Counted from the first letter of the stretch, positions 31,824 through 36,361 are shown. The stretch is 64,000 nucleotides of DNA from an uncultured Planctomycetales bacterium (GCA_964619955.1 CAZUJF010000027.1:1134-65133); one strand, 5' to 3'. Numbers and translations: made by a program. Notes: generated from the letters alone by a model not told the origin.

Positions 31824-32534
31824 CTACTTGCGGAGCTCCTCGAAGACCTCTTCCGGCGCGGGGCGGATGCGGATGTTGCCGGCGGTGCGGATCCAGCGGA
31901 TCTTGCGGTCCTTGTCGATGAGGATCGTCGCGGGGCGCGGAACGTCCATGGACGCCAGGCCCTTCTCGTGGAAGAGCCCGTACTTCTTCGACACCTCGAG
32001 CCCCTCGTCCGAAAGGACCGGGAACGGCAGACCCAGCCCCTTCCCCTGCGCAGGCGTCTGGGGGCCGACGGCGACCACGCTGACGCGCGAGGCCTTGAAA
32101 TCGTCCATCCGCTTCGCGAGCTCGCCGAGCTCGGCCCTGCAGATGATTCAGTAGTGCCCGCGGAAGAAGAGCAGCAGCACCCGCCCCTGGTCGCTGAGGT
32201 CGGAGAGGCGCACGTCCTTCCCGTCCGCGTCCTTCAGCATGAAGTTCGGCGCGAAATCGCCGACCGCGACCGCGGGGCTCCCCTCCAGCCTTCCGACGAG
32301 GCCCCGCACCGCGGCATACCCGCCCGCGCCCAGCACGAACACGATCCAGGCGACCGCCCGCAGCCTGTTCCGCCCCTCCACGCCCTTCGCCGCGATGAGC
32401 AGCAGCAGCGGCACGATGAAAAACGTCAGCGGCAGCCAGGTGTTGCGGAAGAGCGGCACCCCGAGGAGGAGCATGTCCGCGACCCACGCGCCGAGCGTGG
32501 CCAGGATCGCCAGGACGAGCGCCGCAGGCTTCAC
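31824..32534 (-). CDS. Membrane-anchored peroxiredoxin-like (AhpC/TSA) protein, predicted selenoprotein (UxxC)
   Basis: ORFs 32148-32534 and 31824-32147 are in the same frame, separated only by TGA at 32148-32150: LLFFRGHY-U-IICRAEL; hairpin just downstream of the UGA. Confidence 0.8.
32106..32147 (-). promoter_or_regulatory. Putative bacterial SECIS element
   Basis: mRNA after UGA: lower stem CAUCUGC/GCGGAUG; upper stem CGAGCUC-GGC-GAGCUCG; G-first apical loop 21 nt after UGA. Confidence 0.65.
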
Positions 32535-33091
32535 GACTTCACGAAGCGGAAAAAGTCGATGTCGCCGATGCTCTTCGACTCCCCTTCCTTGTCCATCACG
32601 CAGCGCATGACGTAGCGCCCGGCGCGGAGCTTGAGCCCGGGCTTCGCGAGCGGCTTCATGAACTGCCAGCCGCCCGTGTCGGGGATCTCGACCGGACCGC
32701 TCACGTCGAGTCCGTCGAACTCCAGGTGGAAGATGCCGCCCTTCCTGGCCGAGGCCACGCGGGTCTCGAGCAGATAGGTCCCGCTCTCCTTCACCTCGAC
32801 CGTGTAGGCGACCCATTCGCCCGCGCGCGTCCAGCCGATGTTGTAGCGGTTGCTGGCGTCGGCGCGGGGCTCGATGTCGACCCCCGTCTCGCGATACGGC
32901 GCCCCCTGGTTCTTCGGCTCGAGATCGTGGTAGGCGAAGCCCTCGCCGCCCTCGTCGAAATCCTCCGTCTCGATCGTGCCCGGGATGGCGTGGATGCGGC
33001 CCTGGAAGGGGCGGCCGGGCCCCGGCCAAAGCTCCTGCGCCGGGCAGCCGGCGAGCGCCAGGAAGAGGACGGCGGAGGCGGCTCGTCTCAT
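32531..33091 (-). CDS. Carbohydrate-binding module (CBM6-like) lipoprotein
   Basis: Lipobox LAGC; IPGTIETEDFD.GGEG.AYHD; GWTRAGEWVAYTV; TGGWQ. Confidence 0.75.
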   Translation of the reverse strand: MRRAASAVLFLALAGCPAQELWPGPGRPFQGRIHAIPGTIETEDFDEGGEGFAYHDLEPKNQGAPYRETGVDIEPRADASNRYNIGWTRAGEWVAYTVEVKESGTYLLETRVASARKGGIFHLEFDGLDVSGPVEIPDTGGWQFMKPLAKPGLKLRAGRYVMRCVMDKEGESKSIGDIDFFRFVKS

Positions 33092-33099
33092 GAACGCTC

Positions 33100-34485
33100 C
33101 TATTCGGACGGCCGGGCGGACAGGTTCTCGAACCGCGTGTACTGCTTGAGGAAGGCCATCTCCATGTTGCCCACGGGGCCCGTGCGGTTCTTGAGCAGGA
33201 GGACCTCGGCGACGCCCTTCTTCTCGGTGTCGGGCTTGTAGTACTCCTCGCGGTAGAGCGCCATGACGGCGTCGGCGTCCTGCTCGATGGCGCCCGATTC
33301 GCGGAGGTCGGAGAGCATCGGACGGCGCTCCTCGCGCCCCTCGGCGCCGCGGTTGAGCTGGGCGAGCGCGATGACGGGCACGTTGAGCTCCTTCGCCACC
33401 GCCTTCAGGTTGGAGGAGATCATCGCGATCTCGAGCTGGCGGGACTCCGGCGCCTTCGAGCCCTGGCGCGCGTTCATCTTCTGCAGGTAGTCGACCACGA
33501 TGAGCTCGATCCCCTCGCGCGCCTTCATGCGGCGCGAGCGCGTCCGCACCTCGAGGGCCGAGAGGTCGGCCGAGTCGTCGATGAAGAGCTTCGAGTCGTT
33601 GAAGAGCCCCGCGGCCTGCAGCAGCCGCGCGAAGTCCTCCTCCGAGACCCGACCGGTGCGCAGCAGGCTGGAGTCCACGCGCGCGTGGGAGCAGAGCATC
33701 GACTGCGCGATCTGCTGGGACGCCATTTCGAGCGAGAAGAGCAGCACCGGCTTCTGCTCCCGCAGGGCCACGTGCTCCGCGATGTTGAGCGCGAAGCTCG
33801 TCTTGCCCATCGAGGGGCGGCCCGCCACGATGTAGAGCTGGCCGGGCTGCAGGCCGGAGATCTTGTCGTCCAGCTCGAAGAAGCCCGTCGAGAGCCCGAG
33901 CAGGCGGCTCTTGCGGTCGTGGATGTCCTGGATCTGCTGGAAGGTCTCGTGGAGGATCTCGGACATCGTGCGCACCGCCGTCTTCTCGCCCTTGCCGAGG
34001 GCGATGAAGAGGGCCTTCTCCGCCTCGTCCCGGACGGCGTCGACGTCCTCGGTCACCCGCGTGGCGGTGTGGATGATCTTCTGGCACGTCTCGATGATCG
34101 TGCGCAGCATGTACTTCTCGTGGATGACCCGCGCGTACTCCGGCGCGTTCTCCACGTTGGGCACGCCGTCGACGAGCAGCGCCAGGTACTCGGCGCCGCC
34201 CACCTGGTCGAGCTTCCGGTCCTTGGCGAGCTCGTCCCGGAGGACGACGAGGTCGATGGGCTTGCGCTCGAGGTGCAGCTTCAGCACCGTCTCGAAGAGG
34301 GTGCGGTGCGCGGCGAAGGCGAAGTAGTCGGGATTCTGGACGACGTCGACCACGTCGCCGATGACGTTGTTGTCGAAGATCATGGCCCCGAGCAGGGCCA
34401 TCTCGGACTCGCGGCTGTGGGGCAGCGAGGTGTCCCGCAGGACGTCGGCGGGGGCGACCGGATTGCGGGCGGCGGACGTCGACAT
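33100..34485 (-). CDS. dnaB: Replicative DNA helicase
   Basis: LPHSRESE; GRPSMGKT; VVDYLQ; AQLNR; RPMLSDLRESGAIEQDAD; KNRTGP; no intein. Confidence 0.97.
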   Translation of the reverse strand: MSTSAARNPVAPADVLRDTSLPHSRESEMALLGAMIFDNNVIGDVVDVVQNPDYFAFAAHRTLFETVLKLHLERKPIDLVVLRDELAKDRKLDQVGGAEYLALLVDGVPNVENAPEYARVIHEKYMLRTIIETCQKIIHTATRVTEDVDAVRDEAEKALFIALGKGEKTAVRTMSEILHETFQQIQDIHDRKSRLLGLSTGFFELDDKISGLQPGQLYIVAGRPSMGKTSFALNIAEHVALREQKPVLLFSLEMASQQIAQSMLCSHARVDSSLLRTGRVSEEDFARLLQAAGLFNDSKLFIDDSADLSALEVRTRSRRMKAREGIELIVVDYLQKMNARQGSKAPESRQLEIAMISSNLKAVAKELNVPVIALAQLNRGAEGREERRPMLSDLRESGAIEQDADAVMALYREEYYKPDTEKKGVAEVLLLKNRTGPVGNMEMAFLKQYTRFENLSARPSE

Positions 34486-34564
34486 CAGTTCCCCCCGGAC
34501 CTCAGGGCTCGCGGCGCCCGGGGCCCCCTGCGCGGGGGCCCCGGCGCCGCGGATGAATATTAGC

Positions 34565-35065
34565 CTACGCCTTGGCGGGCGGCTCGGACTTTCTGGGGTC
34601 CGACGCGGGCTTGACCGCCTTGGTCGAGAGCACCCAGACCTTGACCTTGGGCTGGACGTCGCGATGCAGCACGACCGTGACCTCGAAGGTGCCGGTCTGC
34701 TTGATCGGCTCGGCGATCTCGATCGCCTTCCCGTCGACCTTGACGCCCTGCTCCTTGAGCGCATCGGCGATCATGGAGGGGGTCACGGCCCCGTAGAGGT
34801 GGCCTTCCTCGTTGGTGTTCACCTCGATGGACACCGACGTGATCGCGGCGAACTTCTCCGCGAGCAGTTTGGCGTCGCTCACGAGCACGGCGTCCTGCTT
34901 GGCGGAGCGCCGCTTGGTCTGCTCGAGCTCCTTGTACATCGCGGGCGAGGGCTTGGAGGCGAGCTTGCGGGGGAAGAGGTAGTTGCGGGCGAAGCCCTCC
35001 TTCACCTCGATCTCCTGACCGCGGCGTCCGACCTTGTCCACGTCCTGCCACAGCAGCACTTTCAT
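34565..35065 (-). CDS. rplI: 50S ribosomal protein L9
   Basis: VKEGFARNYLFP; LYGAVT; PIKQTG. Confidence 0.95.
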   Translation of the reverse strand: MKVLLWQDVDKVGRRGQEIEVKEGFARNYLFPRKLASKPSPAMYKELEQTKRRSAKQDAVLVSDAKLLAEKFAAITSVSIEVNTNEEGHLYGAVTPSMIADALKEQGVKVDGKAIEIAEPIKQTGTFEVTVVLHRDVQPKVKVWVLSTKAVKPASDPRKSEPPAKA

Positions 35066-35110
35066 GGCATCCTCGTCTAATTCTGAAATCCGGCGATCAT
35101 GTCCGCCCGC

Positions 35111-35422
35111 TTACAGCGAGCCGGTACCCACATAGGGCATCATGGACATGTAGCGGGCGCGCTTGACGGCGGCCGTCGCGCTCCGCTGGTGGAACGCGCA
35201 GTTGCCGGAGCGCTTCCGGGAATACAGCTTCCCCTGCCCGGTGCAGAGCTTGAAGAGCACCTGCAGATTCTTGTAGTCCACATGGAGCGTCTTCTCGCGG
35301 CAGAAGCGGCACCGGTTGTCCTTGCGGAACTTGGTGTACTTCTTGCGGCGCTCGTCGCTCTCGCGGTCCCGGTCGTTATCCCGGTCCCTTCCGCCCCTGC
35401 GGTCCCGATCAACTCTCGGCAT
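35111..35422 (-). CDS. rpsR: 30S ribosomal protein S18 (Zn-binding type, RD-rich N-terminal extension)
   Basis: CRFC; VDYKN; GNCAFHQR; AVKRAR. Confidence 0.93.
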   Translation of the reverse strand: MPRVDRDRRGGRDRDNDRDRESDERRKKYTKFRKDNRCRFCREKTLHVDYKNLQVLFKLCTGQGKLYSRKRSGNCAFHQRSATAAVKRARYMSMMPYVGTGSL

Positions 35423-35475
35423 CTCGATCTCCTCGACTTACGTTCCCAAATATTTACGGTACGGAGGACGCGCCC

Positions 35476-35916
35476 TCAGAACGGGATGTCCTCTTCGCTG
35501 CCCGGGGAGGGCGGCTCCTCGGCCGCGCCCTCCGCGGGCGCCCCCGCCCCCCGGGGCCCCCCCCCCCCCCCCCCCCCCCGCCGCCCGGCCCCCCCCCCCA
35601 ACAACATGGCGGCGGTCACCCGGATCTTGCTCATCTTCTTGCCTTCGGGCGACTCCCAGCGGTCCTGCTTGAGCCGGCCCTCGATGAAGACCTGCCGGCC
35701 CTTCTTCAGATATTCCGCGCAGATCTCCGCGGTGCGCCCCCACGCCACGATGTCGATGAAGGACACCTCCTCCACCTTCTGGCCCGTCTGCTTGTTCGTG
35801 TACGTGTGGTTGAGCGCCAGGGCGAACTCGCACACGGCCGAACCCTGCGGGGTGTACCGCAGCTCGGGGTCCCGGGTCAGGTTCCCCAGCAGGATGACCT
35901 TGTTGACGGACGCCAT
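35476..35916 (-). CDS. ssb: Single-stranded DNA-binding protein
   Basis: NKVILLGNLTRDPELRYTPQG; C-terminal EDIPF; in the rpsF-ssb-rpsR cluster. Confidence 0.95.
   Translation of the reverse strand: MASVNKVILLGNLTRDPELRYTPQGSAVCEFALALNHTYTNKQTGQKVEEVSFIDIVAWGRTAEICAEYLKKGRQVFIEGRLKQDRWESPEGKKMSKIRVTAAMLLGGGAGRRGGGGGGGPRGAGAPAEGAAEEPPSPGSEEDIPF
35557..35579. repeat. C23 homopolymer (poly-G on the coding strand) inside ssb
   Basis: Direct count of 23 C, with a further C run at about 35589-35599. Confidence 0.9.
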
Positions 35917-35941
35917 CGCTCGACTCCTTCCTTACCCGAAA

Positions 35942-36361
35942 CTAATGAGCCATCCCGACCGAGAGGCCGTGCGGCACGACCATCGGGGGCGCGCCCATGC
36001 CGAAGCCCGGACGGTCCGTCTTCGGGGGCAGCGGGCCGGCCGTCTCGAAGTCCTTCGGCGGCTCCTTCGCCAGCTCGCCTTCGTGGGCGAGGATCAGGTT
36101 CCGCAGCAGGATCTCCGAGAACTGAAAGTCGGACCGGATTTTCGCGAGCGCCGTGTCCGGCGCCGCGAAATAGGCCACGACGTAGGTCCCGCGGTTGCTC
36201 TTCTTGACCGGGAACGCGAGCTTCCGCTCGCCCCACCTGATCACCGAGAGCACCGCCCCGCCGTTGCGCTTCACGATGCGCTCGACTTCCTCGCCGACGC
36301 GGGCCCATTCCTTCGCCGCGACCGTCGGGTCCACCAGCAGCATCGCCTCATAAGTCTTCAT
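35942..36361 (-). CDS. rpsF: 30S ribosomal protein S6
   Basis: MKTYEAMLL; WGERKLAFPV; GTY. Confidence 0.93.
   Translation of the reverse strand: MKTYEAMLLVDPTVAAKEWARVGEEVERIVKRNGGAVLSVIRWGERKLAFPVKKSNRGTYVVAYFAAPDTALAKIRSDFQFSEILLRNLILAHEGELAKEPPKDFETAGPLPPKTDRPGFGMGAPPMVVPHGLSVGMAH

Follow-up and report, generated by a model that had tools for sequence, protein, structure and literature searches.

Among described systems, the closest are the Prx-like thiol:disulfide oxidoreductase selenoproteins, which combine a PF00578 domain with a UxxC or UxxU redox motif and occur in Geobacter, Syntrophus, and Desulfotalea (PMC1088965; PMC2398784; PMC1794560; PMC9312934; PMC13188914). The Sargasso Sea study lists them as "Prx-like protein", and the GOS study, where this pfam00578 group with its UxxC motif comprised 225 sequences (PMC2398784), as "Prx-like 1" (PMC1088965; PMC2398784). 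Members of the class have abundant homologues with Cys in place of selenocysteine (Sec) and a SECIS hairpin directly after the UGA codon, and their function is a prediction. For selenoprotein prediction in general, at least two Cys homologues are required (PMC1088965). Repeated replacement of Sec by Cys has been described for bacterial selenoproteins, with SECIS-like remnants in the Cys descendants (PMC1794560), and the use of Sec by planctomycetes is already documented (PMC4807772).

Here, we describe a gene of this kind on the minus strand of a stretch of 64,000 nucleotides (the window) from an uncultured planctomycete. The first-pass annotation had proposed that an in-frame TGA splits one gene into two open reading frames, and that read-through gives FFRGHY-U-II-C-RAEL with Sec at the first Cys position of the motif. 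The features at issue are as follows.

31824..32534, minus strand: complete predicted selenoprotein gene, with GTG start, 236 codons, and TAG stop
32148..32150, minus strand: UGA codon 129, predicted to be read as Sec, first position of UxxC
32139..32141, minus strand: TGC codon 132, predicted resolving Cys at the second redox position of UxxC, invariant in three alignments

Both proposals were borne out. The frame opens with a GTG whose first base is 32534, closes with the TAG at 31826..31824 and contains only one TGA, at codon 129; otherwise it is free of stops and frameshifts. The GTG start is supported by the alignment of the N-terminus VKPAALVLAIL with MKQLALVLAIL of the orthologues. The read-through protein of 236 residues contains the segment RVLLLFFRGHY-U-II-C-RAELGELAKR, and the thioredoxin fold that had been recognized on both sides of the TGA appears as one Pfam AhpC-TSA match (residues 91-214, 2.1e-27) that runs across the codon; the Pfam family Redoxin also matches. 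Judged from the sequence, the mid-gene "stop" almost certainly encodes Sec and the locus one intact membrane-bound redox protein, and the interpretation of gene 32534..31824 as a hidden selenoprotein is supported. The full reading, which we hold to be very probable, is a single 236-residue selenoprotein in which UGA-129 would be recoded by way of a stem-loop, and in which a three-helix module precedes a peroxiredoxin-fold domain with a U129-x-x-C132 center.

That Sec-containing Prx-like proteins are an established group, as the annotation had stated, agrees with the catalogued PF00578 UxxC class, which was predicted in 2004-2008. The window protein passes the PF00578 gathering score (95.9 vs. 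26 bits) and has Sec at the first position of UxxC (U129-I-I-C132). By this domain and motif it fits as a new membrane-embedded sub-family within these known, predicted UxxC Prx-like selenoproteins. Two features set the window sub-family apart from the class, a conserved three-helix N-terminal module in the membrane and, throughout an uncultured planctomycete family, a fixed gene position behind dnaB; of these, only the module counts as distinctive. The understanding of Sec decoding is left unchanged by this gene.

Directly 3' of the UGA, the annotation had described a stem-loop with a G-first loop 21 nt away, and both of its stems and the GGC loop were found.

32106..32145, minus strand: SECIS-like stem-loop, +3..+42 after the UGA
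+3..+9 and +36..+42 after the UGA, minus strand: lower stem, CAUCUGC/GCGGAUG
32127-32133 and 32117-32123, minus strand: upper stem, CGAGCUC/GAGCUCG, 7 bp
32124-32126, minus strand: apical loop GGC, starting 21 nt after the UGA

Recoding of UGA-129 to Sec would be carried out by SelB with Sec-tRNA(Sec), guided by this stem-loop a few nucleotides after the UGA. The folding energy of the 69 nt that follow the UGA is no better than that of shuffled sequences (z = -0.09), and hairpins about equal in energy are also formed by the Cys forms of the GC-rich clade. Because folding energy is uninformative in such GC-rich DNA, a structural criterion was used instead, modelled on published bacterial SECIS descriptions and with numerical ranges set after the data had been seen: at least six uninterrupted pairs, no more than one of them G-U, and a loop of 3-7 nt that has a G in its first two positions and starts 13-25 nt after the codon. 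Such a hairpin is present in nine of ten Sec forms and in none of five Cys forms, counts that lend support and do not amount to proof, because shared ancestry links the ten Sec forms. As background, 5.5% of random positions in the genome qualify with stems of at least 6 bp, and 1.8% with stems of 7 bp as in the window. A scan against Rfam returned no SECIS family and only chance-level sRNA matches.

The hairpins of the Sec forms occupy at least three registers, within which three compensatory double changes were identified. One distinguishes the window (L021) from the Sec form L025, where a G-C pair has become C-G; one of the two base changes turns Glu into Gln, and the other is silent in a Leu codon. 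The others, C-G to G-C and C-G to U-A, lie between L029 and L028. The 7-bp stem of the window is perfect and has the same design as in the Sec forms L025 and L194. At the corresponding place, the closest Cys orthologue (L190:3379-4089) encodes the identical peptide RAELGELAKR with GAA for GAG in both Glu codons, and two central pairs of the stem are thereby broken. Read at the nucleotide level, this looks like a SECIS-type element that decayed by synonymous changes after Sec had been replaced by Cys.

The homologues show what the annotation had led one to look for, namely either Cys or a conserved TGA at this site. About 57 full-length orthologues were collected (235-238 aa, 55-70% identity), all from Planctomycetota metagenome-assembled genomes and annotated as "peroxiredoxin family protein"; every one has Cys at the position of codon 129, and C132 is invariant. 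With 57 Cys orthologues, the gene exceeds the two that the published rule asks for. The Cys:Sec ratio of this collection is biased and undersamples the Sec forms, because the homology search applied a length filter of 0.55x the query, under which gene calls split at 128 aa fall. Six-frame searches of 60 relatives recovered the gene in eight, six of which have a single TGA at exactly codon 129. These six relatives, two species of the window's genus and one species from each of four further genera in the family, thus five genera in all, show 31-56% identity to the window protein. When the N-terminal 90 residues were compared with 1.84 billion representative proteins, only seven clusters were obtained. 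Three of them consist of 128-129-aa proteins that end in FFRGAG, FFRGPG, or FFRGKG, and on their contigs a TGA comes next, followed by a separate AhpC-TSA open reading frame of 84-94 aa. Sec-form loci with such split calls in public data are listed here.

L194:1501-2211: Sec-form locus, split call
L195:1501-2214: Sec-form locus, split call
L196:788-1501: Sec-form locus, split call
L193:105-698: Sec-form locus, split call

In total, TGA stands at codon 129 in nine other orthologues (the six relatives and three metagenome lineages), and in no Sec orthologue does the part after the TGA match the window protein less closely than the part before it. Only a single base change (TGC or TGT to TGA) would be needed for a nonsense mutation to have inactivated a Cys-type peroxiredoxin-like gene in the window lineage, and such an event would be in keeping with the Cys forms found in P0002/L190, the closest orthologue at 70% identity, and in most database orthologues. 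We nevertheless consider a pseudogene very unlikely, given a TGA shared at the same codon by nine orthologues down to 31% identity, a downstream half as conserved as the upstream half, a window gene devoid of further stops or frameshifts, a perfect 7-bp stem kept as in L025 and L194 but lost from the Cys sister, and a complete Sec machinery in the genome (see below).

For public annotation, the practical consequence is that the window gene and the Sec forms related to it are recorded as a 128-aa membrane stub and a separate 84-94-aa AhpC/TSA fragment, and these split gene calls hide a full-length membrane redox enzyme and distort the counts of Sec and Cys forms. In the maximum-likelihood tree, the three most divergent Sec forms are basal, followed by a mixed grade of Sec and Cys forms that holds the window protein; the Sec forms are paraphyletic, and the crown is a clade made up of 53 Cys forms. 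The window protein is sister, with support of 100/100, to the Cys form P0002/L190, which at 70% identity is its nearest known orthologue. This topology, with Sec basal and the window sister to a Cys form, fits an ancestral Sec that was retained in some lineages and repeatedly replaced by Cys, the course reported for bacterial selenoproteins (PMC1794560), as far as can be read from the sequences. Among the relatives, selA was found in all six that have the TGA and is missing from one of the two Cys forms. That genome (G001, same genus, 88% complete) yielded no selA, which would fit a loss of the Sec trait together with the replacement by Cys. The family is a tidy example of Sec-to-Cys turnover, with Sec basal, Cys appearing repeatedly, and one Cys sister with a decayed SECIS stem.

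Upstream of the gene lie two further genes on the same strand.

32531..33091, minus strand: CBM_6 lipoprotein gene, 186 aa, lipobox LAGC (CBM_6, 1.2e-16)
33100..34479, minus strand: dnaB (DnaB_C, 1.3e-99), the last gene of an rpsF-ssb-rpsR-rplI-dnaB block

The GTGA overlap at 32534..32531 places the TGA stop of the upstream CBM_6 gene over the GTG start of the selenoprotein gene. This overlap with a CBM lipoprotein gene downstream of dnaB, which the annotation had pointed out, is real in the window. As a trait of the family it is limited to the window's sub-clade: the CBM_6 gene intervenes only there, the same arrangement being seen in L190, L194, and L195, and members of the large Cys clade have the gene immediately behind dnaB. 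The conserved gene order gives no clue to function. Across the family, the order rpsF-ssb-rpsR-rplI-dnaB-(CBM_6 lipoprotein)-Prx-like gene is kept (31824-36361, minus strand, in the window; L190, L191, L194, and L195).

The source genome (5.6 Mb, 71 contigs, 95% complete) encodes the complete set of Sec genes that a functional reading of the TGA calls for, that is, selA (571 bits), selB (325 bits), selD (313 bits), and a tRNA-Sec (69.8 bits) with anticodon UCA (ARAGORN). Its selD is itself a selenoprotein gene with the TGA at the classical GG-U-AGK site, and the selD hairpin GAGUCC-GUU-GGACUU begins 17 nt after the UGA. This hairpin is an in-genome comparator for what the host SelB recognizes. 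The genome has 17 AhpC-TSA matches, seven of which, the window gene included, carry a TGA at the redox position; they include 2-Cys Prx and BCP (TxxU) and TlpA-like and Prx-like2 (UxxC). The selD gene and the six other genes are the following.

C15:97338-98249, minus strand: selD with in-frame TGA, AKSGG-U-AGKLSP
C58:27161-27559, minus strand: AhpC/TSA-superfamily gene with TGA at the redox site, FFYPLDFTFV-U-PTEI
C9:77388-77768, minus strand: AhpC/TSA-superfamily gene with TGA at the redox site, FFYPQDDTPG-U-VKEA
C9:4955-5308, plus strand: AhpC/TSA-superfamily gene with TGA at the redox site, SIYPKDDTGG-U-TRQA
C34:511-831, plus strand: AhpC/TSA-superfamily gene with TGA at the redox site, LDFWTYC-U-VNC
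C42:29339-29653, minus strand: AhpC/TSA-superfamily gene with TGA at the redox site, YLVEEG-U-PGC
C10:56334-56609, minus strand: AhpC/TSA-superfamily gene with TGA at the redox site, LVFLRHLG-U-TFCRD

With at least seven AhpC/TSA-superfamily genes and selD bearing apparent Sec codons, the organism looks like a soil planctomycete rich in selenoproteins. These genes also bear on the possibility of an assembly or sequencing error. A metagenome-assembled genome in 71 contigs may contain errors, and the true codon could in principle be a TGC or TGT for Cys; such an error would, however, have had to hit by chance the very codon at which nine independent assemblies show TGA, and to do so next to an intact SECIS-type stem, in an assembly in which six other AhpC/TSA genes and selD show TGA at redox sites. 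We regard it as highly improbable. As for the meaning of the codon, the frame is open under any sense assignment for TGA, which would also accommodate Trp or Gly inserted through an alternative code or general read-through. TGA is nevertheless a normal stop in this genome, and an altered genetic code is excluded because TGA terminates the neighboring CBM gene and selD; the homologues have Cys at the site and not Trp or Gly, and a dedicated tRNA-Sec (UCA), SelA, and SelB are present. The chance of a Trp or Gly reading is, in our estimation, close to nil, and Sec remains the preferred meaning of codon 129.

The catalytic part of the protein has the following extent.

31893..32264, minus strand: AhpC/TSA (peroxiredoxin/thioredoxin-fold) domain, residues 91-214, from Pfam, AlphaFold2, and Foldseek

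AlphaFold2, run on an alignment of 67 sequences, gave a pLDDT of 95 and a pTM of 0.88 for the whole chain. The top Foldseek matches of the model are Bcp4 (3hjp) and AhpE, with TM-scores of up to 0.86 on the target, and by profile the closest solved folds are likewise BCP/PrxQ and AhpE (2cx3, 3hjp, 1xxu; E 1e-23). With these peroxiredoxins the window protein shares the fold and a Cys, C132, at the peroxidatic position. In the profile alignment to BCP 2cx3, FFPAAFSPVCTKEL is set against fFRGkyclvCraeL, so that the catalytic Pro of peroxiredoxins corresponds to R125, the Thr/Ser to U129, the peroxidatic Cys to C132, and the catalytic Arg to P201. The triad is thus lacking, R-G-H-Y-U-I-I-C standing in place of PxxxT/SxxC and Pro201 in place of Arg; of the strict peroxiredoxin signature (PxxxT/SxxC plus catalytic Arg), only the peroxidatic Cys is kept. 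A strict peroxiredoxin mechanism was rejected on these grounds, with R125, U129, and P201 standing in for Pro, Thr/Ser, and Arg. U129 lies at the very start of the helix formed by residues 130-140 in the AlphaFold2 model, just as the attacking Cys does in CxxC proteins of the thioredoxin type. Judged by alignment and model, the active-site layout is thioredoxin-like (UxxC) and not that of the true peroxiredoxin triad.

The best NCBIfam match of the window protein (residues 57-216, membrane helix included) belongs to the ResA/TlpA/CcmG proteins, thiol-disulfide oxidoreductases that are anchored in the membrane and act in the periplasm (B. subtilis ResA, 1st9). Shared traits are the CxxC-type site at a helix start, Pro201 at the position of the thioredoxin cis-Pro loop, the membrane anchoring, and the availability of a DsbD/CcdA-type reductant in the source genome. 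The protein is not a ResA member, because it scores 60 bits with the ResA model NF002854 against a cut-off of 170; it differs in having three helices rather than one, Sec for the first Cys, and a topology that is a prediction, and its gene has no link to cytochrome c maturation genes. PrxU (NF040737) and the SelL-related proteins (NF040769) are selenoproteins of the same superfamily. The window protein is neither, because its scores are far below the respective cut-offs (38.4 vs. 270 and 47 vs. 120), and in PrxU the Sec occupies the peroxidatic position (TxxU) whereas here it occupies the first position of UxxC.

The part that distinguishes the sub-family precedes the redox domain.

32280..32534, minus strand: N-terminal three-helix membrane module, residues 1-85

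The annotation had noted about three N-terminal transmembrane helices and had regarded them as unusual for this gene. The helices themselves are supported by three hydrophobic segments (>1.6, Kyte-Doolittle) and by AlphaFold2, which places helices at residues 2-22, 34-48, and 56-79. They are not special to the window gene, since they are common to the whole family, Cys forms included. The module as such is rare, with only the seven representative clusters recovered among 1.84 billion proteins, and Pfam has no family for it. As a whole, it comes close to the catalytic domain in conservation. Within the planctomycete family, D20, halfway along helix 1, and the loop residues R30-N31 (R30-N31-G-W-W) are invariant, and R77, where helix 3 ends, is near-invariant. 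Neither a conserved Cys nor a known cofactor motif occurs in the module. Three-helix relatives at 31-38% identity (P0061 and the Sec form L112) have a similar R-D-V-P-W loop after helix 1. The constraint on the module exceeds what a plain anchor would need.

The redox domain most likely faces outward, into the periplasm, although the charge bias is neutral at the level of the family. An odd number of helices together with four K/R in loop 2 of the window protein argues for this orientation, the positive-inside rule favoring it for the window protein and being neutral across the family. The resemblance to ResA and the coupling to a lipoprotein gene point the same way, as do several distant Sec homologues, which have signal peptides or single anchors and not three helices.

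For the chemistry, we propose that the selenolate of U129 would attack an oxidized substrate, which may be a disulfide and possibly a hydroperoxide. C132 would then resolve the intermediate to give an intramolecular selenylsulfide, and a thiol reductant would regenerate the reduced enzyme. If the domain is periplasmic, the reductant could be supplied by the single DsbD/CcdA-type transporter of the genome (one DsbD_TM gene).

A real selenoprotein might instead be a peroxidase that acts on membrane or lipid hydroperoxides, the module presenting the substrate, rather than a thiol:disulfide oxidoreductase. The fold is closest to the BCP and AhpE peroxiredoxins and C132 aligns with their peroxidatic Cys, and the conservation of the membrane module (D20 and R30-N31 invariant, R77 near-invariant) and the pTM for the whole chain are in keeping with such a role. 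The catalytic Pro, Thr, and Arg of peroxiredoxins are, however, replaced by R125, U129, and P201, and the module offers neither Cys nor known cofactor motifs; we therefore think a peroxidase unlikely. A bolder proposal makes the three-helix module a working part of a membrane-integral selenoenzyme; the module could bring a substrate residing in the membrane, for instance a lipid hydroperoxide or a quinone, to the Sec-Cys center. We put this forward as a long shot. If true, the protein would be a bacterial counterpart, on a Prx-like fold, of the membrane-directed GPx4-like activity. The predicted thiol:disulfide oxidoreductase, with Sec as the attacking residue, is the function that we prefer.

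Beyond the family, scans of genome and metagenome contigs returned mostly distant soluble Cys homologues from Acidobacteriota; homologues with TGA at this codon were also found in Blastocatellia, Zixibacteria, and metagenomes. These distant TGA homologues have the motif FYRGYW-U-PxC (L039, L063, and L105 from Blastocatellia, L077 from Zixibacteria, and L116, L123, L125, and L129 from metagenomes), and their TGA is often followed by GGUCU-type loops.
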